12,237 nucleotides of DNA. Source: a virus. The translations under genes were made by a program, and so were the position numbers. Shown here in pieces: positions 1 to 12,237 of the stretch. The notes beneath the pieces were generated by a model that had not been told where the DNA came from, made no database searches, and saw only the letters and a list, made by a program, of their open reading frames with translations. Where the stretch lies: the UHGV virus genome UHGV-0179089, one strand, 5' to 3'. Each line of letters begins with the position of its first letter. The stretch's first letter is position 1.

Positions 1-801
1 GTCCGTCACGGTACACTCTGTAAAGTCGACCGCCGACAGCTTTGTCGCCGCCAGGTAAGCCCGGTCGATGGGCAGTGTGGCCGTCTCCGGCTCCGGACCG
101 AAGGCTTTTGTCAGCTCCGTGCGGAAGAAGCCGCCCAGCTGCTGCTTCATCAGGGCTTTTTTCTTCTTCTGCGCACGCTGGAATTTTGCCGAGTTTTTCT
201 CTGCAAGGTTGGCAAGTTTCATGGTGACCTGCGCCAGCGTCATATCACGTCCACTCATCGGCGCAACGGTGTGAGTAACGTCTTTTTTATTCAGTAAGAA
301 CTGGAAAGCAACCAGCGTATCGCTATTTGTGATCCGGTTTTCCGCCGTCGGGCTATGAAACAGAATGCTGATAGTCTGACCATCACTGAGCGGAATAATG
401 GCTGGCAGGACCGGCAGCCCGTTAACGTTACGCGCCCGGCCAATTTCAGCGCCGCCGATCGCTCGCGCGCCGCTCTGGGCCACATCACCCGTTTTATCAC
501 TCCCCGCAGAGATTCCTGTACCATTCAACTTCTGGTTCAATGCCCGGACAAATGCCTGCATGGTCCGGTGTAACTGCAAACGAGTAGAACTAATCGCCTC
601 CAGTAAATCCGTAGCACACCAGTGGATCGGCGTGTCATAGAAGAACGTAGCCTCGATTTCCTCCAGCGTGTTGGATTCCGTCATCAGATAGCGGTCCTCA
701 CCGGCCATTAATGCGCGATATTCATCATCAGTCACCGGCGGGGGAAGCACGTCAAGCCCAGGCTTAATCGTCACCCCTTTATTGATATTGAACTGTTCCA
801 T
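1..801 (-). CDS. Hypothetical phage protein, N-terminal 267 aa (start ATG at 801..799; C-terminus beyond left edge). Paralog of the adjacent 203-aa protein; tentatively DarA/Hdf-like (P1 antirestriction/capsid-associated family)
   Basis: Minus-strand frame checked triplet by triplet from 801 to 1 and contains no stop. Shares the motif KNSAKFQ(R/K)..K.K with the next gene. Start lies 1 nt after the stop of the upstream gene (operon-like). DarA/Hdf assignment rests on recalled P1 operon layout, not on sequence identity. Confidence 0.55.
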   Translation of the reverse strand, partial: MEQFNINKGVTIKPGLDVLPPPVTDDEYRALMAGEDRYLMTESNTLEEIEATFFYDTPIHWCATDLLEAISSTRLQLHRTMQAFVRALNQKLNGTGISAGSDKTGDVAQSGARAIGGAEIGRARNVNGLPVLPAIIPLSDGQTISILFHSPTAENRITNSDTLVAFQFLLNKKDVTHTVAPMSGRDMTLAQVTMKLANLAEKNSAKFQRAQKKKKALMKQQLGGFFRTELTKAFGPEPETATLPIDRAYLAATKLSAVDFTECTVTD

Positions 802-802
802 G

Positions 803-1414
803 TTAATTTCCTGCTTTCAGTTGCTTAAGACGGCGTTTGAGTTCGCCATTTCGGGCCTTTTCGTTATTGAGTCGGCCTGTCTCCTTATCCAGCTTCGCCC
901 GCAAATCAGTGATCTGCTGTTGATTGAAAGACACCGAGTTCTGCGCTGATTTATAAGCGGCAACCACCTGAGCATTCCGCTGTTTTGCCTCTTGCAGGCG
1001 CTGAAAGTTGGATTTTACTGCCGGTTTCTTGTCTACCGGATTGGCAACACGTTTCGCTTTGGCGATCAGTGATTTCTGGAATTTTGCGGAGTTTTTGCGG
1101 GCCGCTTGCCCCATGACGGTACCAAGCGTCTTGATATCCGGCGACTGAGCGTTAGGAATAGCTTTTCCATTCAGCCTCACAGACGATATATCGCCAGTAT
1201 CGTTTACCTGTATGGCAAGAATTTGTCCGTCGTTAAGAACCAGCTTTGCGGTTTTAACTTTAACGCCATCTTTCGTTGTTGCGCGGTTGCTGGAGTCAAC
1301 CTCAATTACCGTAACACCGGTTTTATTGATCGCCGCGATAAGGGATTTCAGCCCCTTTTCATTAACCTGGTCAAAATCGACCGTTGCATACTTATTTTTC
1401 GTCATCTGACACAT
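803..1414 (-). CDS. Hypothetical phage protein, 203 aa (probable true start at the ATG 1405..1403, giving 200 aa); tentatively Hdf-like (homolog of DarA fragment)
   Basis: ORF track. An AGGA Shine-Dalgarno sits about 8 nt upstream of the internal ATG at 1405. Lys/Ala/Gln-rich C-terminal half; shares a motif with the partial downstream ORF. Its 5' end overlaps the stop of the 147-aa ORF. Confidence 0.6.
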   Translation of the reverse strand: MCQMTKNKYATVDFDQVNEKGLKSLIAAINKTGVTVIEVDSSNRATTKDGVKVKTAKLVLNDGQILAIQVNDTGDISSVRLNGKAIPNAQSPDIKTLGTVMGQAARKNSAKFQKSLIAKAKRVANPVDKKPAVKSNFQRLQEAKQRNAQVVAAYKSAQNSVSFNQQQITDLRAKLDKETGRLNNEKARNGELKRRLKQLKAGN

Positions 1415-1835
1415 CCTGTGCGAGATTTATTACGTAACTTCTGCGGATTTGCTGAGTAACAGGGAAAATCCGATACAACGGGTTAATGAACGAGTCGCCA
1501 TGCGTAACCATGACGTTGAAATGCCACAGCCGTTCTCCTTTACCCATATATTCAGTGGGTATGTATAACCATTCGCTGTTTTCGCCCTGTTCAGCCGATG
1601 TCAGACAACGTTGCTCGCCTTCAATCACTGTCGTCGGCTTCTGAACATCGCGGATCCAATACCTGACCGTTGCGCCGCGCAAAAAAGGAAATTTGGACCG
1701 GTATTTGAACGGCACCCGGATGAAGCCCGGTTTAATTTCCACTTCGCCAAGCTCTAAATTCGTGATGTCCTTGCGTTTTAGCAAATAGCGATCGGCTAAG
1801 GCTAACGCAAGAGCGCATACACCCCAGCCAATCAT
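1392..1835 (-). CDS. Hypothetical protein, 147 aa, with a hydrophobic N-terminus; possible lysis regulator (size and position resemble P1 LydB, tentative)
   Basis: ORF track. N-terminal hydrophobic stretch MIGWGVCALALALA. Its start overlaps the stop of the 109-aa holin-like gene (ATGA at 1832-1835), suggesting translational coupling. Confidence 0.5.
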   Translation of the reverse strand: MIGWGVCALALALADRYLLKRKDITNLELGEVEIKPGFIRVPFKYRSKFPFLRGATVRYWIRDVQKPTTVIEGEQRCLTSAEQGENSEWLYIPTEYMGKGERLWHFNVMVTHGDSFINPLYRIFPVTQQIRRSYVINLAQDVSDDEK

Positions 1836-2161
1836 TTCCCGCCTCCCTTTTTCACCAAACTTGTAAGAACATTCAGAATGCTATCGATATTCACTCGTTT
1901 CATCCCTGAAATCACCTCATGACCGTTATTGCTGGCTATCGTTACCATTAAGTACGTAATTGATAACTCCCAGCCCTCGTGTTGCCCCAATAGGTACGCC
2001 ACCGCGCCAGCTGTCACTGCAACAAAGATCTCCGTAACCAATCCCAACAAATTGCCAGACTGACGACCGTCTCGGACATCCATCAGGAACGTGCCTATCC
2101 CACCAATTACTGAAAGCAGGAGCGCAATAGCAACTGGAGCTAATTCCTGTGTGTCAAGCAC
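1832..2161 (-). CDS. Small membrane protein, holin-like, 109 aa (GTG start); tentatively LydA-type holin
   Basis: Strong AGGAGGG Shine-Dalgarno 5 nt upstream of the GTG at 2161. Two or three predicted hydrophobic helices and a charged C-terminus (KKGGGK). Paralogous to the 98-aa ORF upstream. Confidence 0.6.
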   Translation of the reverse strand: MLDTQELAPVAIALLLSVIGGIGTFLMDVRDGRQSGNLLGLVTEIFVAVTAGAVAYLLGQHEGWELSITYLMVTIASNNGHEVISGMKRVNIDSILNVLTSLVKKGGGK

Positions 2162-2166
2162 AAGTT

Positions 2167-2188
2167 CCCTCCTACGTTGTCAGGAGGT
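2167..2188 (-). promoter_or_regulatory. Stem-loop that pairs the Shine-Dalgarno of the 109-aa holin-like gene with an upstream anti-SD (mRNA CCUCCU ... AGGAGG)
   Basis: Plus-strand CCTCCT (2168-2173) and AGGAGG (2182-2187) are a perfect 6-bp inverted repeat with an 8-nt loop. On the minus-strand mRNA the downstream arm is the ribosome-binding site. Confidence 0.4.
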
Positions 2189-2228
2189 AATGGTATGCAA
2201 AGTAACTTCTCAACCGGTCATTTGTTGC

Positions 2229-2525
2229 TTAAGAGGCATTTCTATTGAGGTACGAATCGATAAGCCTTTGTAACCTTTCAAGAATGAGCCTGTTATTGAT
2301 GCTGCAAATAAGAGTCACGCAATTCTGAAGACTTTCATCCATCCCCTTATATTCCGCGAAACACATGCCTATAAAGCCTGCAAGTACGGCAGAAATACAC
2401 TCGGCCAACAATTTCCTGCATGACGCTTCGTAACGTTTTTCACGAACCCCATTCAGAAACGAATGCACTCCGCCAAGGATGGATATGAGAATTATTTTTA
2501 AATCAAACATAATAATTTCCCTCAT
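2229..2525 (-). CDS. Small membrane protein, holin-like paralog, 98 aa (probable start at ATG 2510..2508, giving 93 aa)
   Basis: ORF track. GAGG Shine-Dalgarno 9 nt upstream of the internal ATG. Alignable to the 109-aa protein (S-x-[IL]-GG-x-x-x-FL ... AV-x-AG ... VT-[IL]-I-x-S-x-NN). Confidence 0.55.
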   Translation of the reverse strand: MREIIMFDLKIILISILGGVHSFLNGVREKRYEASCRKLLAECISAVLAGFIGMCFAEYKGMDESLQNCVTLICSINNRLILERLQRLIDSYLNRNAS

Positions 2526-2637
2526 GGTGAGTTAAACATCACTGGGAAACGGTATGCACTTTGTGATTTCCACACACACTGGTTTTTGTTAATTAAAATC
2601 CGCAGCTTGCTATAAATAACGATAGTGAGCAGAAAAT
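2526..2637. promoter_or_regulatory. Divergent intergenic region between the holin-like operon (minus) and the invertase (plus); candidate invertase promoter (-35 TTGTTA 2587-2592, -10 TATAAA 2611-2616)
   Basis: 112-bp AT-rich spacer between divergently oriented genes. Hexamers are 18 bp apart and about 20 nt upstream of the invertase ATG. Confidence 0.3.
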
Positions 2638-3198
2638 ATGCTAATAGGCTATGTACGCGTATCAACAAATGAACAAAACACTGCTTTGCAACGAAATGCC
2701 CTTGAAAGCGCAGGATGTGAGCTAATTTTTGAGGATAAGGCGAGCGGCAAAAAGGCTGAACGCCCTGGGTTAAAAAAGGTTCTGCGTATGCTTTCCAGAG
2801 GTGACACCCTGGTCGTATGGAAGTTAGATCGTCTTGGGCGCAGCATGCGTCACTTAGTTGTGCTGGTGGAAGAGCTGCGTGACAGAGGCATTAACTTCCG
2901 GAGTCTCACTGACTCCATCGACACCAGTACACCAATGGGGCGCTTTTTCTTTCACGTAATGGGGGCGCTGGCAGAAATGGAACGCGAACTTATCGTCGAA
3001 CGTACACGCGCTGGGCTTGATGCAGCTCGCGCGGAGGGGCGAATAGGAGGCCGTCGGCCTAAATACCCGGAAGAGACATGGCAGCAAATGCGACGATTGC
3101 TAGAAAATGGCATCCCCCGTAAACAGGTTGCAATCATCTATGATGTGGCTATGTCCACGCTTTATAAAAAGTTTCCGGCATCATCATTTCAATCTTAA
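2638..3198 (+). CDS. Serine-type DNA invertase, Hin/Gin/Cin/Pin family, 186 aa
   Basis: N-terminal catalytic signature [14 protein letters not shown]. Family-conserved blocks [63 protein letters not shown]-terminal helix-turn-helix [21 protein letters not shown]. Confidence 0.95.
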
Positions 3199-3215
3199 AC
3201 CTTGGTTTAAGAGAA
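3190..3215. other. cix/gix/hix-type 26-bp crossover site for the invertase (CAATCTTAAACC-TT-GGTTTAAGAGAA)
   Basis: Two 12-bp half-sites in inverted orientation around a 2-bp core; the inner 9 bp of each are a perfect dyad (TCTTAAACC / GGTTTAAGA). Overlaps the invertase stop codon (3196-3198) and lies just upstream of the start-less tail-fibre cassette. Confidence 0.75.
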
Positions 3216-3245
3216 CTCGGCACCAGCGGCGAAAAGATCCCCCTG

Positions 3246-5351
3246 TTGAGCACGGCTAACACATGGAGTGCACGCCAGACTTTCAACGGTGGGATCACCG
3301 GTGCGCTGACAGGGAACGCCGATACCGCAACGAAATTAAAAACAGCGCGGAAGATTAACAACGTTTCATTTGACGGTTCGGCGGACATAACGCTGACTCC
3401 TGCGAACCTTGACGTTACCAGCCTGACGTTTATGAAGCACAATGGAATAATCCCAACCACTGACAATCTTGAATCCTATGGTCCAGAAGAAAAATATCTT
3501 GGGACGTGGTCATGCCCGTCACAATCCACTGCAAAACCAGAGTCTGGTTACCCTGAAGATAAAGGAAATGGGGTTCTGGAAGTATTCAATGCTGGTCGCT
3601 TTCACTGCACACAACGCTACACCACCCGAACCGGTAATATTTACATTCGGATGCTTGATGCAGAATGGAACCCAGCCAGTCCAACATGGAGTGCATGGAG
3701 AGTTATTACAAGCGGGACTCGACCATTAAGCACGTCAATTGACCTGAATTCTTTAGGTGGTGCGGAACACCTGGGAATATGGCGCAATAGCAGTACATCA
3801 ATAGCCTCATTTGACCGTCATTTCCCGGAGGAAGGGAGTTTTGGGCAGGGTATTCTGGAAGTCTTTGAAGGCGGTCTGTATGGGAGGATGCAACGTTACA
3901 CCACCCGTAGTGGGACTATGTACATTCGCGGACTGACTGCCTCATGGGATGCAGAAAATCCACAATGGGAGGACTGGATTGCTGTTGGGTATCAGTCCAC
4001 GGGATGGACTTATTCAGGGGATCTTGATGACCTTTTAAAGCCTGGTATTTATAGCGTTACGAAACAGGCCACAAATGCACCTGTCACCGACTCTAAAGAT
4101 CTTGCTGTTGGCTCAATAGTTGAAGTGAAAAAACGTTGTGATATTGAATCGTATATCCAGACATACACGACTGTTTCAGCAACGGATGCCTATAAAAACC
4201 GGACATTTCAGCGAACCCGCGCCAGCGGTGAAACTGACTGGGGGGAATGGGCGGAAGTATACAACTCAAAATCATTACTCACTAAATTAGGTGTCGGCGG
4301 TGTTACCGACAGGTTATCCAGTCTGGACTGGCAGACCTACGACTTTATACCGGGCAGCATGATAACTGTCAGGCTTTCAGATATGACCAATATTCCCGAT
4401 GGGATGGAATGGGGCGTCATTGATACTAACCTGATAAATATCACTGTTGGCCCCAGTGAAGGCGGAGGTGGCGCCCGTTCAATGCATGTATGGCGCAGCA
4501 CTTCAAACAAAACCAACTATCGTTTTTTTACAGTCCGCTTATATGGCAATCCTGGGGAGCGTAGCTTCAATATTCGTCGGCTACCAATTATCGACGAAGC
4601 CCAGACATGGGAGGCAAAACAGACATTCAGTGCAGGCCTTTCTGGTGAACTGTCCGGCAATGCGGCTACAGCAACAAAGCTGAAAACGGCAAGGACAATT
4701 AACGGCGTAAAATTTGACGGCTCGGCAAATATTGAAGCATTTCCGCCAGGTGTTCCGTTGCCGTGGCCATCAGATACACCACCTGCGGGCTATGCAATTA
4801 TGCAGGGGCAGACGTTTGATAAGGCAGCATATCCGAAACTGGCTATAGCCTATCCTTCTGGTGTTATTCCTGATATGCGCGGCTGGACAATCAAGGGCAA
4901 ACCCGCCAGTGGGCGTGCTGTATTGTCACAGGAACAGGACGGGATTAAATCGCATACTCACAGTGCCAGTGCGTCAAATACGGATTTGGGAACGAAAACA
5001 ACCAGTTCGTTTGATTACGGCACGAAGACGGTCAGTACGTTTAATCATGGCACAAAATCAACGAACAATACGGGCAATCATACGCACACTGTCGGTGGTG
5101 TTTATGGCGGCGACTCTGTCGGTGGAAAACAGCGTGTACAGGCTTCAGGAAACAATCAGGTGTCCAGCACCGCCGGAGCGCACGCCCATACGGTGGATAT
5201 TGGTCAGCATAACCACACTGTAGGTATTGGTGCCCATGCACACACTGTGGCCCTGGGTGCGCACGGACACACCATCACGGTAAATGCTACGGGTAATACC
5301 GAAAACACCGTCAAAAACATCGCATTTAACTATATTGTGAGGCTTGCATAA
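3246..5351 (+). CDS. Tail-fibre variable C-terminal cassette (Sv/H-like receptor-binding region) with no start codon of its own; frame is open from 3168, through the crossover site
   Basis: No ATG or GTG between the upstream stop (3165-3167) and the conserved motif; the track start is a TTG. Conserved tail-fibre junction motif [13 protein letters not shown]...FDGSADI. Tail-collar-like block [21 protein letters not shown]. Five C-terminal HxH repeats. Confidence 0.85.
5076..5273 (+). repeat. Five tandem His-x-His repeats (NHTHTV, AHAHTV, QHNHTV, AHAHTV, AHGHTI) in the tail-fibre tip
   Basis: Read directly from the translation of 3246..5351. Resembles the metal-coordinating HxH motifs of T4-type fibre tips (established knowledge). 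Confidence 0.6.
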
Positions 5352-5929
5352 TGGCTTTCAGAATGAGTGCAGAAGCACAAACTATCCGCGTTTTCAATTT
5401 ACTTGATGGAACCAATGAATTTATTGGTGAAAGTGACGCATATATTCCGCCGCATACAGGTCTGCCTGCAAACAGTACAGATATTGCACCGCCTGATATT
5501 CCTGCTGGTTATGCAGCCGTTTTCAATGCAGATGAAATGAAATGGGAACTGATGGAAGACCATCGCGGAAAGACCGTCTATGAAACGAAAACGGGAGCAG
5601 CCATTTATATTTCTGAACTTGGCGTATTACCTCCAGACGTGACAGCCATTTCCCCGGATGGGGATTATCAGAAATGGAACGGCAATGCGTGGGTGAATGA
5701 TGAGAATGCAGAGCGTGATGCGCTTGTCAGAGCGGCTGACTCTCAGAAGAAAGAGCTGATTGCATATGCAGGTGAAATTATTGCCACGCTGCAGGATGCT
5801 GTCGATTTAGATATGGCTACCGAGGAAGAAAAGTTAAGCCTGACACACTGGAAAAAATACCGTGTGCTACTGAATCGCGTTCAGCCGGAAAATGCCCCGG
5901 ATATTGAATGGCCGAAAATGCCGCAATAA
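5351..5929 (+). CDS. Tail-fibre assembly chaperone (Tfa / Mu U / P2 G family), 192 aa
   Basis: Start overlaps the tail-fibre stop (ATAATG). N-terminal motif [44 protein letters not shown] and C-terminal [11 protein letters not shown]...IEWPKMPQ are typical of this family. Confidence 0.9.
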
Positions 5930-6496
5930 ATCGTATTAGAACTGGTGTGAGATTAGTCATCTATGGCACAGAGTAAAACCTAATCTGACAGTCCACTCTG
6001 TGCCAGCAGCAATTGCGTGGCCAAAGGAAACACTGCCAGCACAATCAGGTATTGATATGTCGATGTAGTCCTGAATGGCTGGCAACTCACCTAACCTAAT
6101 GAGCTCCCGTTCAACCGGAACATAAGGTCAATTCTGTTGTATGATTTTTCCCTTTTTGAAAGAATAATAGCGATAAATGACGAATTTTTGGAACCCTGCT
6201 TGTTGCTGAAGATACGTTGTCACAATGGAAGAACGTGACTTACATCGAAGTGATGGGAGTATCCGTCAAGATCTAATACACGAAAATAGAAGTGAAAAGG
6301 TACGCTGCGAGGGCGCTCGCCTGTCCGCTCTGTCTGCGAAGAAATAATTTATTTTAGGCCACCCAAGCGGCTTGTTTAAGATTAGTACTCTTATCTAGAA
6401 AACTCGTAACTGACTTGAATGTATGGTAACATGATAATAACAAGGTTCGAACATCCGCCAATGCAATATACTTAGAACATATAAATTGAATCTGAC

Positions 6497-7378
6497 ATGG
6501 ATAAAAATAAATTGGTTAAATTTTCACTAGTCGAAAACGCCTTGGATTCTATTGAGCTAGGTTTGGAGTATTTTTACGAAGCAAAAAAAGAATTCACGCC
6601 ACGTAAATATAAACAATGCCTAATTAATATGTTTCATGGCTCGGAGTTAATCCTGAAAGAAATATTGAGTAGGATAAATATTATACTCATATTCGACAAA
6701 AACTCTTTATTTAAAATTTGCAAAGATCCTTTAAGTCCTACTGGGGATGAGTTGTATAAATTAAAATCAATAGATATTAATAGCTTATGCGATGAGGTTG
6801 TGAAGCATTATCCGGACGAGTTTAAAGGAAAGCTTAATATTGTCAAGGGCCTAGCTAGAGAAAGAAACAAGATACAGCATTTTGCAATCGAAATATCACC
6901 AGAGATATTATCAAGGTTACTCTCAAGTCTTTACATTGATGTTTTTAAGCCATCCTTTAAAATAATTTTATCTGAGCTTGATTATGTTAATCAATACAAT
7001 TCGCTGATTGAAAGGCAGATTATAGGTGCTGAAAAGACATTTCTTAAAATACAAGGTGATACTGATAACTATTTAGCTCTTTGTCCAAAGTGCGAGAACC
7101 ATTCTCACTTTATATTGTACAAAGGTACGGGTTACCCTGTTGAGACCTATTGTATTTGCTGTGATTATAAAAATACAGATATTGACATATCAGATTATCT
7201 GGTATGTCCTGAATGCGGATTCCCGTCATTGATATTTGATGAAAAAAATAATGCAGGAGTCTGCCTCAACGAGAAGTGTTACTATGGAATACAAGGTGGA
7301 TTCGTAGAAATGGAACCATGTGAAAATTGTGATGGCTTTATTATTGAAGGTTCATGCCCAGAATGTGATACGGATTGA
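6497..7378 (+). CDS. AT-rich cargo gene, hypothetical 293-aa protein: helical N-terminal region with an R-x4-H (HEPN-like) motif plus a C-terminal triple CxxC zinc-ribbon tail; candidate defence or abortive-infection effector
   Basis: Single long ORF in an island much more AT-rich than its flanks. Motif RERNKIQH at aa 121-128. Cys pairs CPKC, CICC, CPEC, CLNEKC, CENC, CPEC between aa 196 and 291. Occupies the slot between tfa and FI where P2 carries Z/fun. Confidence 0.75.
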   Translation: MDKNKLVKFSLVENALDSIELGLEYFYEAKKEFTPRKYKQCLINMFHGSELILKEILSRINIILIFDKNSLFKICKDPLSPTGDELYKLKSIDINSLCDEVVKHYPDEFKGKLNIVKGLARERNKIQHFAIEISPEILSRLLSSLYIDVFKPSFKIILSELDYVNQYNSLIERQIIGAEKTFLKIQGDTDNYLALCPKCENHSHFILYKGTGYPVETYCICCDYKNTDIDISDYLVCPECGFPSLIFDEKNNAGVCLNEKCYYGIQGGFVEMEPCENCDGFIIEGSCPECDTD

Positions 7379-7555
7379 GATTACTCGACGATTGGTGCAA
7401 CTGCATGCTTGCAAAACTCTATGGTGCTAACGGAGTCAATTACTGAATTGTTGTTACCCATTGACGGATAGATTTCGGTTGCTTAACTGTGAATGGAGTA
7501 GCATGACAGAGTTTTTTACCAGTCCGATTAGCTTCTATCAAATAGCAGTTCGGAC

Positions 7556-7584
7556 AGGCGGGCTGATTGCCCGCCTTTTCTTTA
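7556..7584 (+). terminator. Rho-independent terminator downstream of the cargo gene
   Basis: 8-bp GC-rich stem AGGCGGGC/GCCCGCCT with a 5-nt loop, followed directly by TTTTCTTT. Confidence 0.7.
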
Positions 7585-7601
7585 TCTGTTGTTTCATCCC
7601 C

Positions 7602-7616
7602 TGACCAGCCAGGTCA
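7602..7616 (+). promoter_or_regulatory. 15-bp palindrome TGACCAGCCAGGTCA upstream of FI; candidate late-promoter activator site (P2 Ogr-type)
   Basis: Perfect dyad centred about 70 nt upstream of the FI ATG, where P2-type late promoters carry an activator dyad. It does not match the TGT-N12-ACA consensus exactly. Confidence 0.3.
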
Positions 7617-7679
7617 AATAGCGTCTCATGCTCTGCACAACAGAAAATAGTTGCACCCATTAACCACGGAGTTAAACGG

Positions 7680-8870
7680 ATGAGTGACTATCATCACGGC
7701 GTGCAGGTGCTGGAGATTAACGACGGCACCCGCGTCATTTCCACCGTATCAACCGCCATTGTCGGCATGGTCTGCACAGCCAGCGATGCGGATGCGGAAA
7801 CCTTCCCCGTCAATAAACCGGTGCTGATTACCAATGTGCAGAGCGCGATTGCAAAGGCCGGTAAAAAAGGCACGCTGGCGGCGTCGTTACAGGCCATCGC
7901 TGACCAGTCAAAACCGGTCACCGTTGTCGTACGTGTGGAAGACGGCACCGGCGAAGACGAAGAAACGAAACTCGCGCAGACCGTTTCCAATATCATCGGC
8001 ACCACCGACGAAAACGGTCAGTACACCGGACTGAAAGCCCTGCTGGCGGCGGAGTCGGTAACCGGTGTTAAACCGCGTATTCTCGGTGTGCCGGGGCTGG
8101 ATACCAAAGAGGTGGCTGTTGCACTGGCATCCGTCTGTCAGAAGCTGCGCGCTTTCGGGTATATCAGCGCATGGGGCTGTAAAACCATTTCCGAGGTGAA
8201 AGCCTACCGTCAGAATTTCAGCCAGCGTGAGCTGATGGTCATCTGGCCGGATTTCCTCGCATGGGATACGGTCACCAGTACCACCGCCACCGCGTATGCC
8301 ACCGCCCGTGCGCTGGGTCTGCGTGCCAGAATCGACCAAGAGCAGGGCTGGCATAAAACGCTGTCCAACGTCGGGGTAAACGGTGTTACCGGCATCAGTG
8401 CGTCCGTATTCTGGGATTTGCAGGAGTCCAGCACCGATGCTGACCTGCTGAACGAGTCAGGTGTCACAACGCTGATTCGCCGTGACGGTTTCCGCTTCTG
8501 GGGTAACCGTACCTGCTCTGATGACCCGCTGTTCCTCTTTGAAAACTACACCCGCACCGCGCAGGTGCTGGCCGACACGATGGCTGAGGCGCACATGTGG
8601 GCGGTGGACAAGCCCATCACCGCAACGCTGATTCGCGACATCGTTGACGGCATCAATGCCAAATTCCGTGAACTGAAAAGCAACGGTTATATCGTGGATG
8701 GCACATGCTGGTTCAGTGAAGAAGCCAATGATGCGGAAACCCTCAAGGCCGGAAAACTGTATATCGACTACGACTATACCCCGGTGCCTCCTCTCGAAAA
8801 CCTGACCCTGCGCCAGCGTATTACTTCAAGATACCTGGCAAGTCTGGTCACCTCGGTTAACAGCAATTAA
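7680..8870 (+). CDS. FI: Contractile tail sheath protein (P2 gpFI-like), 396 aa
   Basis: Length and sequence (MSDYHHGVQVLEINDGTRVISTV...) match P2 FI closely from memory; GGAG Shine-Dalgarno upstream; followed by FII. Confidence 0.95.
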   Translation: MSDYHHGVQVLEINDGTRVISTVSTAIVGMVCTASDADAETFPVNKPVLITNVQSAIAKAGKKGTLAASLQAIADQSKPVTVVVRVEDGTGEDEETKLAQTVSNIIGTTDENGQYTGLKALLAAESVTGVKPRILGVPGLDTKEVAVALASVCQKLRAFGYISAWGCKTISEVKAYRQNFSQRELMVIWPDFLAWDTVTSTTATAYATARALGLRARIDQEQGWHKTLSNVGVNGVTGISASVFWDLQESSTDADLLNESGVTTLIRRDGFRFWGNRTCSDDPLFLFENYTRTAQVLADTMAEAHMWAVDKPITATLIRDIVDGINAKFRELKSNGYIVDGTCWFSEEANDAETLKAGKLYIDYDYTPVPPLENLTLRQRITSRYLASLVTSVNSN

Positions 8871-8882
8871 GGAGCCTGACCG

Positions 8883-9401
8883 ATGGCAATGCCGCGCAAA
8901 CTCAAGTTAATGAACGTCTTTCTGAACGGCTACAGCTATCAGGGCGTCGCGAAGTCCGTCACGCTGCCAAAACTGACCCGTAAGCTCGAAAACTATCGCG
9001 GTGCGGGGATGAACGGCAGCGCACCGGTAGACCTCGGCCTTGATGATGATGCGCTGTCAATGGAGTGGTCGCTCGGGGGCTTCCCGGATTCGGTTATCTG
9101 GGAACTTTACGCCGCAACTGGTGTGGATGCCGTGCCGATTCGTTTTGCAGGCTCTTACCAGCGTGACGATACCGGCGAAACGGTGGCCGTCGAAGTGGTC
9201 ATGCGTGGGCGTCAGAAAGAAGTCGATACCGGCGAGGGGAAACAGGGAGAGGATACCGAATCGAAACTCCCGGTGATTTGTACTTATTTCCGGCTGACGA
9301 TGGACGGTAAGGAGCTGGTCGAAATTGACACCATCAACATGATTGAGAAGGTGAACGGCGTCGACCGGCTGGAGCAACACCGCCGAAATATCGGCCTGTG
9401 A
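8883..9401 (+). CDS. FII: Tail tube protein (P2 gpFII-like), 172 aa
   Basis: MAMPRKLKLMNVFLNGYSYQG... and a 172-aa length; GGAG Shine-Dalgarno 8 nt upstream; conserved P2 order FI-FII-E-T. Confidence 0.95.
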   Translation: MAMPRKLKLMNVFLNGYSYQGVAKSVTLPKLTRKLENYRGAGMNGSAPVDLGLDDDALSMEWSLGGFPDSVIWELYAATGVDAVPIRFAGSYQRDDTGETVAVEVVMRGRQKEVDTGEGKQGEDTESKLPVICTYFRLTMDGKELVEIDTINMIEKVNGVDRLEQHRRNIGL

Positions 9402-9408
9402 TTTTCAT

Positions 9409-9429
9409 CCGGTCAGCCAGGCTGACCGG
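9409..9429 (+). other. Perfect 10-bp inverted repeat CCGGTCAGCC-A-GGCTGACCGG between FII and E; possible attenuator hairpin or protein-binding site
   Basis: Seen directly. No T-run follows, so it is not a canonical intrinsic terminator. Confidence 0.3.
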
Positions 9430-9457
9430 TTAACCCCGATTCAGAAGTGAGAAAACC

Positions 9458-9733
9458 ATGAACAAAGAAAATGTGATTACCCTGGACAATCCGGTCAAGC
9501 GTGGTGAGCAGGTTATCGAACAGGTCACGCTGATGAAACCCAATGCGGGGACGCTGCGCGGTGTCAGTCTGGCTGCGGTCGCAAACTCCGAAGTCGATGC
9601 ACTGATTAAAGTGCTGCCGCGCATGACGGCACCGATGCTGACTGAGCAGGAGGTCGCCGCGCTGGAGCTGCCTGACCTTGTGGCGCTGGCCGGTAAGGTG
9701 GTCGGTTTTTTGTCGCCGAACTCGGTGCAGTAA
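9458..9733 (+). CDS. E: Tail assembly chaperone gpE (P2-like), 91 aa
   Basis: 91-aa ORF directly upstream of the tape-measure gene; carries the slippery heptamer near its 3' end. Confidence 0.9.
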   Translation: MNKENVITLDNPVKRGEQVIEQVTLMKPNAGTLRGVSLAAVANSEVDALIKVLPRMTAPMLTEQEVAALELPDLVALAGKVVGFLSPNSVQ

Positions 9734-9885
9734 CGTTTCCGAAAAATCTCTCGGTCGATGACCTGATGGCGGATGTGGCAGTGGTATTTCACTGGCCGCC
9801 ATCAGAACTGTATCCCATGAGCCTGACCGAACTCATCACATGGCGCGAAAAGGCGCTCCGGCGAAGCGGAAACACGAATGAGTAA
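9458..9885 (+). CDS. E': gpE+E' fusion chaperone made by a programmed -1 frameshift at TTTTTTG (9706-9712); the -1 frame stays open to the TAA at 9883-9885, overlapping the T start
   Basis: Slippery heptamer T_TTT_TTG lies in the E zero frame. The -1 frame was translated by hand from 9709 to 9885 and has no stop; it ends ...WREKALRRSGNTNE*. Confidence 0.8.
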
Positions 9886-12237
9886 CAATGTAAAATTACA
9901 GGTATTGCTCAGGGCTGTTGACCAGGCATCCCGCCCGTTTAAATCCATCCGCACAGCGAGTAAGTCGCTGTCGGGGGATATCCGGGAAACACAAAAATCA
10001 CTGCGCGAGCTGAACGGTCACGCATCCCGTATTGAGGGATTTCGCAAGACCAGTGCACAGCTCGCCGTGACTGGTCATGCACTTGAAAAGGCTCGGCAGG
10101 AAGCCGAAGCCCTTGCCACACAGTTTAAAAACACCGAACGTCCGACCCGTGCTCAGGCGAAAGTGCTGGAATCCGCAAAGCGTGCGGCGGAGGACTTACA
10201 GGCGAAATATAACCGCCTGACGGATTCCGTTAAACGCCAGCAGCGGGAACTGGCCGCTGTGGGAATTAATACCCGCAATCTTGCACATGATGAGCAGGGA
10301 CTGAAAAACCGTATCAGTGAAACCACCGCACAACTTAACCGGCAGCGTGACGCGCTGGCGCGTGTCAGTGCGCAACAGGCAAAACTTAACGCAGTAAAAC
10401 AGCGTTATCAGGCCGGCAAGGAACTGGCCGGAAATATGGCCTCAGTGGGCGCTGCCGGTGTGGGGATTGCGGCGGCGGGAACGATGGCCGGAGTTAAGCT
10501 GCTGATGCCCGGTTATGAGTTTGCGCAGAAAAACTCAGAATTACAGGCCGTGCTCGGAGTGGCAAAAGACTCCGCCGAAATGGCCGCGCTCCGCAAACAG
10601 GCGCGCCAGCTCGGCGACAACACCGCCGCCTCGGCGGATGATGCAGCCGGTGCGCAGATTATCATTGCGAAAGCCGGTGGGGATGTTGATGCCATTCAGG
10701 CGGCAACGCCGGTCACGCTGAATATGGCGCTGGCGAACCGCCGCACGATGGAAGAAAACGCCGCCCTGTTGATGGGGATGAAATCCGCCTTTCAGCTTTC
10801 AAACGATAAGGTCGCTCATATCGGGGATGTTCTCTCCATGACGATGAACAAAACCGCCGCCGATTTTGACGGCATGAGCGATGCGCTGACCTATGCCGCA
10901 CCTGTGGCAAAAAATGCCGGTGTCAGCATTGAAGAAACCGCCGCAATGGTCGGGGCGCTGCATGATGCAAAAATTACCGGTTCAATGGCGGGGACGGGAA
11001 GCCGTGCCGTGTTAAGCCGCCTGCAGGCACCGACGGGAAAAGCATGGGATGCACTGAAAGAGCTTGGTGTGAAAACCTCAGACAGTAAGGGAAACACCCG
11101 GCCAGTATTTACCATTCTGAAAGAAATGCAGGCCAGCTTTGAGAAAAACCGGCTCGGTACTGCCCAGCAGGCTGAATACATGAAAACCATTTTCGGGGAG
11201 GAGGCCAGCTCAGCCGCCGCCGTGCTGATGACTGCCGCCTCAACCGGAAAGCTGGACAAACTGACCGCTGCGTTTAAAGCCTCAGACGGAAAGACCGCAG
11301 AGCTGGTAAATATCATGCAGGACAACCTCGGCGGTGACTTTAAGGAGTTTCAGTCCGCTTATGAGGCTGTGGGGACTGACCTGTTTGACCAGCAGGAAGG
11401 CGCACTGCGTAAGCTCACGCAGACGGCCACAAAGTATGTGTTAAAACTCGACGGCTGGATACAGAAAAACAAATCACTGGCGTCAACCATCGGCATCATT
11501 GTCGGTGGTGCACTGGCGCTGACTGGTGTCATCGGTGCCATTGGCCTCGTAGCCTGGCCGGTTATCACCGGCATCAATGCCATTATCGCGGCAGCAGGCG
11601 CAATGGGGGCAATTTTCACGACGGTTGGCAGTGCCGTTATGACGGCCATCGGGGCGATTAGCTGGCCGGTAGTGGCCGTGGTGGCCGCCATTGTCGCCGG
11701 AGCGTTACTTATCCGTAAATACTGGGAGCCTGTCAGCGCATTCTTTGGCGGTGTGGTGGAAGGGCTGAAAGCGGCATTTGCGCCGGTGGGGGAACTGTTC
11801 ACGCCACTTAAGCCGGTGTTTGACTGGCTGGGTGAAAAGTTACAGGCTGCGTGGCAGTGGTTTAAAAACCTGATTGCCCCGGTCAAAGCCACCCAGGACA
11901 CCCTGAACCGTTGCCGTGACACGGGCGTCATGTTCGGGCAGGCACTGGCTGACGCGCTGATGCTGCCGCTTAATGCGTTCAACAAATTACGCAGCGGCAT
12001 TGACTGGGTACTGGAAAAGCTCGGGTTCATCAACAAAGAGTCAGACACACTTGACCAGACAGCCGCCAGAACTCATGCCGCCACGTATGGCACCGGTGGT
12101 TATATTCCGGCGACCAGCTCTTATGCAGGTTATCAGGCTTATCAGCCGGTTACGGCACCGGCTGGCCGCTCTTATGTGGACCAGAGTAAAAACGAATATC
12201 ACATCAGCCTGACGGGTGGTACTGCGCCGGGGACACA
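9878..12237 (+). CDS. T: Tail tape measure protein (P2 gpT-like), N-terminal about 786 aa; 3' end beyond the right edge
   Basis: ATG at 9878, frame open to the window end. Coiled-coil-like N-terminus and a Gly/Ala-rich hydrophobic block (GIIVGGALALTGVIGAIGLVAWPVITGINAIIAAAGAMGA) typical of tape measure proteins. Confidence 0.9.
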   Translation, partial: MSNNVKLQVLLRAVDQASRPFKSIRTASKSLSGDIRETQKSLRELNGHASRIEGFRKTSAQLAVTGHALEKARQEAEALATQFKNTERPTRAQAKVLESAKRAAEDLQAKYNRLTDSVKRQQRELAAVGINTRNLAHDEQGLKNRISETTAQLNRQRDALARVSAQQAKLNAVKQRYQAGKELAGNMASVGAAGVGIAAAGTMAGVKLLMPGYEFAQKNSELQAVLGVAKDSAEMAALRKQARQLGDNTAASADDAAGAQIIIAKAGGDVDAIQAATPVTLNMALANRRTMEENAALLMGMKSAFQLSNDKVAHIGDVLSMTMNKTAADFDGMSDALTYAAPVAKNAGVSIEETAAMVGALHDAKITGSMAGTGSRAVLSRLQAPTGKAWDALKELGVKTSDSKGNTRPVFTILKEMQASFEKNRLGTAQQAEYMKTIFGEEASSAAAVLMTAASTGKLDKLTAAFKASDGKTAELVNIMQDNLGGDFKEFQSAYEAVGTDLFDQQEGALRKLTQTATKYVLKLDGWIQKNKSLASTIGIIVGGALALTGVIGAIGLVAWPVITGINAIIAAAGAMGAIFTTVGSAVMTAIGAISWPVVAVVAAIVAGALLIRKYWEPVSAFFGGVVEGLKAAFAPVGELFTPLKPVFDWLGEKLQAAWQWFKNLIAPVKATQDTLNRCRDTGVMFGQALADALMLPLNAFNKLRSGIDWVLEKLGFINKESDTLDQTAARTHAATYGTGGYIPATSSYAGYQAYQPVTAPAGRSYVDQSKNEYHISLTGGTAPGT

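Follow-up and report, generated by a model that had tools for sequence, protein, structure and literature searches.

Does the stretch of viral DNA catalogued as UHGV-0179089 come from a phage in which the lysis and antirestriction operon of phage P1 has been joined to the tail genes of phage P2? The window, by which we mean the whole 12,237-nucleotide (nt) stretch analysed here, raises that question through the order of its open reading frames (ORFs). Five close-packed minus-strand ORFs at the left end are followed on the plus strand by a recombinase, a tail-fibre-like ORF and an assembly protein; next come a 293-amino-acid (293-aa) ORF of low guanine-plus-cytosine (GC) content and then sheath, tube, E and tape-measure genes. 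A first-pass annotation had read this as a P1-like operon beside an invertase, joined to P2-like genes through a shared tail-fibre region. Our sequence comparisons suggest a different answer. We hold it very probable that this is an ordinary P1-like lydC/dar region in a chimeric contig with three sources, that its joins arose during assembly, and that the contig does not represent a hybrid phage.

An exact look-up of the 293-aa protein (hereafter the moron protein) identified the window as the whole of contig ena:ERZ1310408:NODE_839_length_12237_cov_2.180181, from a short-read gut metagenome, with a k-mer coverage of 2.18x. The collections searched held 5,426 Escherichia coli genomes, 72,556 plasmids (PLSDB) and 50,697 phage records. 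Proteins were compared with those of P1 (NC_005856, region 29.8-32.2 kb) by BLASTP, families were assigned from Pfam matches (those to Phage_holin_3_3, LydB and DarA_N above their gathering cut-offs), and PHROG and PADLOC were also used.

The operon itself is that of P1. Window 152-3346 is 96.6% identical in nucleotide sequence to P1 across darA-hdf-lydB-lydA-lydC-cin-cixL with the gene order kept, and the same stretch resembles several hundred P1-like plasmids from E. coli, Salmonella and E. albertii. The first-pass annotation had the five minus-strand ORFs, their sizes, coordinates and overlaps (1832-1835 and 1392-1414) right, and the BLASTP comparison it called for matches all five products, reciprocally, to P1 proteins at 86-100% identity. 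Its gene names, however, were shifted by one gene, with four names (lydA-lydB-hdf-darA) for five ORFs: the 98-aa ORF is lydC, so the true order is lydC-lydA-lydB-hdf-darA. Its last gene, described as at least 267 aa, is darA for the first 217 codons and foreign for the last 50. The features of the operon are as follows.

151-801, minus strand: 5' part of darA, codons 1-217 of 639; 98% identity to P1 DarA residues 1-217/220; Pfam DarA_N, E=4.3e-43.
803-1414, minus strand: hdf, 203 aa; 98.5% identity to P1 Hdf; Pfam DarA_N, E=1.5e-21; PHROG 1620, Hdf-like antirestriction.
1392-1835, minus strand: lydB, 147 aa; 96.6% identity to P1 LydB; Pfam LydB over the full length, E=2.3e-101.
1832-2161, minus strand: lydA, 109 aa; 100% identity to P1 LydA; Pfam Phage_holin_3_3.
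2190-2208, minus strand: late promoter LPdar, -22 and -10 elements as annotated in P1; identical to P1 31212-31230.
2229-2525, minus strand: lydC, 98 aa from the ATG at 2525; 86% identity to P1 LydC and 31% to LydA; Pfam Phage_holin_3_3.

The genes, their order, their strands and their overlaps are those of P1. The order lydC, lydA, lydB, hdf, darA runs on one strand, divergent from cin; LydA and LydC are class II holins orthologous to those of P1; LydB and the DarA_N domains of Hdf and DarA likewise have their orthologues there; and LPdar lies upstream of lydA. The entire spacer between lydC and lydA is identical to P1, and lydC and the cin promoter region are the parts most diverged from it. 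In the P1 annotation LydC has 93 aa and starts at window-equivalent 2510. The ends of lydA and lydB overlap in an ATGA at 1832-1835, lydB and hdf overlap by 23 nt (1392-1414), and a single base separates hdf from darA; overlapping gene ends of this kind would allow coupled translation. Hdf and DarA, which the first-pass annotation took to be paralogs sharing the motif KNSAKFQ, are indeed paralogs as judged from BLASTP (31% identity over 90 aa, E=2e-4, with the alignment ending at KNSAKFQ) and from the DarA_N domain common to both. The motif is also present at the DNA level, as a 21-nt direct repeat (178-198 and 1076-1096).

LydC is an accessory holin of P1. In the Dar system, Hdf and DarA are proteins associated with the head, and both are needed for loading the Dar antirestriction proteins into the capsid; these proteins enter with the injected DNA and guard it from type I restriction. 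In P1, lydC is expressed on its own, as a monocistronic unit under an early promoter, and LPdar drives lydA (the main holin), lydB (whose product antagonises LydA and delays lysis), hdf and darA (PMC9025707).

By every sequence criterion tested save the completeness of darA, the operon belongs to the P1 family. P1 has a full darA (639 aa with a DarA_C domain) followed by ddrA and ddrB; in the window DarA_C, ddrA and ddrB are absent, and similarity to DarA stops at residue 217-220. After codon 217 the contig switches to foreign DNA, which is why darA breaks off and neither ddrA nor ddrB follows; the single departure from the P1 family is thus a consequence of the artefact described below. This is the well-known lydC/dar region of P1, and its position beside cin, which the first-pass annotation had correctly placed next to an invertase, is the standard and already known arrangement of P1 (Punavirus). 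The annotation had allowed that its arrangement might prove to be standard for a known lineage. That is the case in part, for the lydC-lydA-lydB-hdf-darA order divergent from cin.

Where does the foreign DNA at the left end come from? The left-end ORF starts at 801, runs for 267 codons and continues off the contig edge; its first 217 codons are darA and its last 50 (window 1-150) are foreign. Two features define this end.

1-150, minus strand: foreign fragment, a small membrane-protein gene of Oscillospiraceae/Clostridiales; neither P1 nor E. coli.
151-171, unstranded: left breakpoint word AGGGCTTTTTTCTTCTTCTGC, 21 nt common to P1 darA and the Oscillospiraceae gene.

Identity to P1-like sequences begins at 151 in every P1-like match, and identity to a Flintibacter sequence (L035) spans window 1-171. 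An exact 33-mer from 1-150 matches 15 genomes, nearly all of them from Oscillospiraceae or other Clostridiales (Flintibacter, Oscillibacter, Dysosmobacter, Flavonifractor and Yanshouia), and those genomes align to window 1-174/180 at 86-93% identity, straight across the breakpoint. The product of the foreign gene is a small membrane protein whose upstream part (…GVALFLLVAKPAQTKKKALMQQQ…) has no DarA_N domain. Window 1-150 had no match in the E. coli genomes or PLSDB plasmids, and two exact-word scans of IMG/VR, as well as a first genome scan, came back empty. The absence of E. coli and plasmid matches, together with the Oscillospiraceae matches found instead, led us to reject the readings of 1-150 as a divergent darA allele or as the end of an insertion sequence (IS).

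The 21-nt word encodes (A)QKKKKAL in both genes, and it is for this reason that the 50 foreign codons are in frame with darA. SPAdes/metaSPAdes, after whose style the contig is named, use 21 as their smallest default k. A fragment from Clostridia joined to a gene of an E. coli phage through a 21-mer, on a contig of about 2x coverage, is best taken as an assembly error.

A protein search with 51 residues from this end matched only two metagenomic ORFs, P0001 and P0002, and pointed to contigs of Oscillospiraceae type, which the 33-mer genome scan then bore out. The one close match, P0001 (77 aa, from a 601-nt ENA contig), ends in ...LSLIHI, the translation of the Nextera adapter sequence CTGTCTCTTATACACATC, so P0001 too comes from an artefactual contig.

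The right join, from P1-like to P2-like DNA, lies within a tail-fibre gene. It is best seen against two sequences assembled elsewhere. L014 (ERZ1311710 NODE_155, 93.5 kb) is P1-like and comes from a human-gut metagenome, as does a second P1-like sequence, L016 (ERZ28656476 scaffold_259, 88.8 kb); L005 (GCA_005400045.1) is one of the P2-like prophages with the same moron, as are L006, L008 and L011. The features at this join are these.

3203-3566, plus strand: start of the variable tail-fibre segment Sv, P1-like; flipped C-segment orientation beside cin.
3567-3760, plus strand: right breakpoint zone, 194 base pairs (bp) that P1-like S and P2-like H share without a mismatch.
3761-5351, plus strand: 3' part of H, a P2-type tail-fibre gene; counted from 3409 it corresponds to H residues 227-873, the N-terminal 226 residues being absent.

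The reverse complement of the expressed S gene of L014 is 100% identical to window 3199-3760. On the P2 side of this join, H of L005 and L011 is a 100% match to the window from 3567 on. P2-type mismatches end at 3566 and P1-type mismatches start at 3761; the 194 bp between them are the longest exact repeat common to L014 S and L005 H, and form the core of a 563-bp segment in which the two genes are 93.8% identical (window 3413-3975; L014:14554-15326; L005:6913-7475). On these alignments the switch from P1 to P2 falls somewhere inside the 194-bp perfect repeat. A switch at 3409-3431, in a microhomology of 19-24 nt, was suggested by P1, APEC17 and the PLSDB alleles L012 and L013, and was rejected: L014 is 100% identical through 3760, and the crossover is therefore placed in the 194-bp repeat. 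This Sv allele itself had no match in PLSDB, complete E. coli genomes or IMG/VR.

Within H, whose product has 873/875 aa, the match starts at nucleotide 680 (residue 227), and the tail-fibre-like ORF of the window runs from 3246 to 5351 (701 codons). Records of the truncated 639-aa H product come from a single contig, the window itself. A P2-like contig from a sibling sample (L007) begins at window-equivalent 3684, within the 194-bp repeat, as expected when an assembler cannot resolve a repeat.

The 563-bp segment common to S and H points to a recent exchange of a tail-fibre shaft or receptor-binding module. Such exchange is known since 1992, and the segment is a new instance of it: judging by their titles (listed in PMC9594776), Haggard-Ljungquist 1992 and Sandmeier 1992 deal with the exchange of tail-fibre modules among P1, P2 and Mu. 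In the cluster of H proteins that holds P0008, P0010, P0011 and P0014, several isolate-genome entries are partial, 606-648 aa long and cut by contig ends. The 648-aa partial H starts almost exactly at the onset of the P1-homologous segment (H residue ~226). These partial entries suggest that isolate assemblies also break at this repeat.

The P1-like and the P2-like parent were assembled separately elsewhere. L014 and L016, found by an exact look-up of the Cin protein, are 100% identical to window 151-3253. On one side they continue with full-length darA, ddrA and ddrB; on the other they have a normal C segment and the P1 S, R, gp16 and baseplate genes. They differ from the window in having intact P1 genes on both sides and no P2-type genes. 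In ERZ1311710 the P1-like plasmid is the 93.5-kb contig, at coverage 6.06, and a P2-like prophage with the same moron (~98.8% identical) is a separate contig, at coverage 6.13, that starts inside the 194-bp repeat. Similarly, ERZ28656476 has the P1-like scaffold and, apart from it, a ~99% identical P2-like scaffold with J-I-H(873 aa)-G-moron-FI. All other contigs with the same moron have the normal P2 gene order, and those that reach upstream of H read V-W-J-I-H(873 aa)-G-moron-FI-FII-E-T-U-D-ogr, one of them a 983-kb isolate contig. From the near-equal coverage in ERZ1311710 we conclude that the P1-like and P2-like elements were probably in one E. coli strain. Co-residence would explain how an assembler could confuse the two.

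In the collections searched, the junction was found in no other genome or assembly. Among the E. coli genomes, plasmids and phage records, none spans 80% or more of the window or of 3199-3800. A two-anchor junction pattern had no match in IMG/VR or the JGI metagenomes; this search has low power, and its IMG/VR negative is weak because the P1-side anchor by itself is also absent there. Two chromosomal P1-like matches, in E. coli strains NCTC9040 and APEC17, were considered as the same arrangement and rejected, being respectively an IS-riddled remnant and a full P1-like region.

We propose that the assembler took the following path. Starting in an Oscillospiraceae gene (1-150), it would have passed through the shared 21-mer (151-171) into darA of a P1-like plasmid, followed that plasmid over 151-3566/3760, and crossed through the 194-bp exact repeat into a P2-like prophage (3567/3761-12237). 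S and H would owe that repeat to a past exchange of tail-fibre modules. Shared k-mers between low-abundance genomes are a recognised source of chimeric contigs (PMC7299287). The window resembles repeat-mediated chimeras of de Bruijn graphs in having breakpoints at exact shared words, very low coverage and taxonomically incompatible parts. Indeed, each breakpoint lies in an exact repeat of both parents (21 nt and 194 nt) that is at least as long as the assembler k. The low coverage is accompanied by parents that form separate contigs in related assemblies, and the sources joined on the left, Oscillospiraceae (Bacillota) and an E. coli phage-plasmid gene, are biologically incompatible. We infer that the assembler, and not an event in a cell, produced the joins. 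The earlier proposal of a P1/P2 join through the tail-fibre region thus holds as to place, the switch being inside a tail-fibre gene. As a biological joining of modules it is not supported, given the 2.18x coverage, the breakpoints in shared repeats, the separate parents elsewhere and the lack of an independent junction.

Several points weigh against an assembler origin. The artefactual status of the joins is drawn from sequence comparison. A single homologous crossover in the 194-bp repeat would give the same right-hand sequence in vivo, and a real gene fusion would look just like the 50 foreign codons in frame with darA. The P2-like part is 98.8-99.1% identical to the sibling-sample prophages, and not identical to them. 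Finally, the same contig is on record under three 'samples', which may be re-depositions of one assembly or independent assemblies.

The first alternative is that the right junction is real and only the left end an assembly error. A P1-like phage-plasmid and a chromosomal P2-like prophage would have undergone a single homologous crossover in the shared tail-fibre segment (3413-3880). The outcome would be a cointegrate or hybrid in which cin/cixL and the dar operon directly precede a 5'-truncated H. A recombination-competent repeat does exist (563 bp at 93.8%, 194 bp exact). In sibling samples the two elements are at equal coverage, a hint that they share a host cell; exchange of tail-fibre modules among P1, P2 and Mu is known, as the 1992 titles listed in PMC9594776 indicate; and P1-like DNA is at times chromosomal in E. 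coli (NCTC9040, APEC17). The product of such a crossover would be identical in sequence. However, the other end of the same contig has a demonstrable cross-phylum join, and this assembly therefore does make repeat-mediated errors. Coverage is only 2.18x, and the collections searched hold no independent instance. Better-covered samples have the elements apart, with H intact where the contig reaches, and the sibling P2-like contig breaks inside the repeat as an unresolved repeat would make it do. We regard a real junction of this kind as unlikely, and slightly less probable again a genuine Sv::H junction formed by a P1-like phage-plasmid that integrated into, or swapped arms with, a resident P2-like prophage by way of the tail-fibre module common to both. 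If that junction were genuine, Cin/cixL and the P1 holin and antirestriction operon would lie beside a silent 3' cassette of P2 H, and the contig would be a snapshot of invertible host-range cassettes and modules moving between unrelated temperate gut myoviruses.

A second alternative is that a P1-like phage is mosaic by nature, P2-type sheath, tube and tape-measure genes having taken the place of its own tail module, the contig (or all of it from 151 on) being one replicon. What speaks for this is the contiguity of the contig. Against that, the H-type ORF beside cixL is missing residues 1-226 and has no constant part. The P2 part, moron included, is 98.8% identical to chromosomal P2-like prophages in full P2 order, and P1-like contigs of 88-93 kb, with normal P1 tail-fibre, R, gp16 and baseplate genes, match the P1 part at 100% identity. 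Moreover, the arrangement occurs in none of the more than 500 P1-like plasmids matched. We consider a mosaic phage very improbable. It is just as hard to credit that a real DarA variant continues into window 1-150 with a divergent, mosaic C-terminal part: the ORF is open and in frame over 150/151 and DarA_N generally occurs in varied architectures, but the 50 residues match an Oscillospiraceae small membrane protein whose upstream part has no DarA_N, DNA identity of 86-93% to those genomes continues through the breakpoint, and darA continues normally in the P1-like contigs with 100% identity on the other side.

With assembler-made joins as the preferred reading, the adjacency of P1-like and P2-like genes should not be filed as a hybrid phage. 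A catalogue entry, a host-range prediction or a 'mosaic phage' claim drawn from this contig would be wrong. The same holds for its 267-aa 'DarA' and 639-aa 'tail fibre' proteins, which would be chimeric entries. The biological weight of the contig is small: the lydC/dar region of P1 is known, as is tail-fibre exchange between P1-type and P2-type phages since 1992. The real signal that remains is the 563-bp tail-fibre segment, with its 194-bp identical core, common to a P1-like plasmid and a P2-like prophage apparently in one gut E. coli; it points to a recent exchange of receptor-binding modules. The case is also a caution. A low-coverage metagenome contig can mimic a novel hybrid phage when the assembler crosses repeats of co-resident mobile elements, and an assembler can cross even a 21-nt word shared with another phylum.

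The NCTC9040 match (L001, chromosome positions 2138480-2165717) is a P1-like remnant riddled with IS1 and IS5 elements. Its darA is cut after ~341 codons and adjoins a helicase fragment; it also has cin, a 5'-truncated tail-fibre gene, repA/parAB and a 192-aa assembly gene ~72% identical to window G. It shows that P1-like DNA can come to lie in the chromosome.

Between the operon and the tail-fibre ORF lies the inversion system of P1. Cin inverts the C segment between cixL and cixR, switching the S/U tail-fibre ends. The window holds the following parts of it.

2638-3198, plus strand: cin, serine invertase, 186 aa; 98.4% identity to P1 Cin; Pfam Resolvase and HTH_7.
2656-2727: recombinational enhancer inside cin; 69/72 identical to P1, 3 differences.
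3193-3212, unstranded: crossover site cixL; 19/20 bases identical to P1 cixL.

The serine invertase thus has its Resolvase and HTH_7 domains and its internal enhancer. A search of the window for a second, inverted cix site, which could make the 3' part of H invertible, found none. The pair of inverted cix sites flanking alternative tail-fibre ends is absent from the window; L014 has the full segment. Neither the dar nor the Cin/cix system is complete on the contig, because darA is incomplete and cixR is absent.

The C segment of the window differs from that of P1 in putting Sv, not Sv', next to cin. This cin-cixL-Sv order is the flipped isomer of the C segment, a normal state of P1. L014, otherwise identical, has Sv' after cin-cixL (window 3199-3355 compared with L014:10562-10718 and L014:15170-15326). 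The two inverted-repeat arms are identical over the first 55 nt past 3199 and then show scattered differences. The opposite orientation fits either a Cin-mediated inversion in the population or an assembler hop over the inverted repeat.

The rest of the window is P2-type. From 3409 to 12237 it is 94-97% identical in nucleotide sequence to Peduovirus genomes (P24A7b, L-413C and P2) and many E. coli prophages, and FI, FII, E and T are P2-type genes just as the first-pass annotation had said. Beyond H the features are these.

5351-5929, plus strand: G, P2-type tail-fibre assembly protein, 192 aa; Pfam Caudo_TAP, E=2.6e-40; matches Peduovirus records.
7680-8870, plus strand: FI; 94-97% identity to Peduovirus.
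8883-9401, plus strand: FII; 94-97% identity to Peduovirus.
9458-9733, plus strand: E; 94-97% identity to Peduovirus.
9878-12237, plus strand, cut by the contig end: T; 94-97% identity to Peduovirus.

The called genes of 7680-12237 match the Pfam sheath, tube, TAC_7 and tape-measure families, and the order H-G-(moron)-FI-FII-E/E'-T, with P2-type proteins, is that of P2-like phages. The moron-bearing Peduovirus prophages, which are related to L-413C and P24A7b, share the order G-moron-FI-FII-E-T with the window. They differ from it in having an intact 873-aa H, with its N-terminal baseplate-binding part, after V, W, J and I; in the window, P1 sequence replaces H codons 1-226 and all that lies before them. 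From 3409 onward the window aligns gap-free to moron-bearing P2-like contigs at 98.8-99.1% identity (98.8% for L005 and L008). Mismatches to the nearest of these prophages are patchy (for example 7750-8000, 8500-9250, 10500-10750 and 11500-12237), with identical stretches between. Either the normal mosaicism of P2 or the blending of two or more P2-like prophages by an assembly at 2x could account for the patches.

Between G and FI, at the classical variable locus of P2, the window carries a moron of 1.5 kb. Its ORF (6497-7378, plus strand) lies within a low-GC island at 6010-7557, is ~31-35% GC and encodes the 293-aa moron protein, with several CxxC pairs in the C-terminal third. The protein matches no Pfam family. 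It matches PHROG 20819, a family whose function is not known, over its full length, and its sequence is identical on at least 14 contigs. Over its N-terminal 170 residues it also matches PDC-S64, a candidate defence family of PADLOC (E=2.6e-22), and the ORF is a candidate anti-phage gene of the P2-like prophage.

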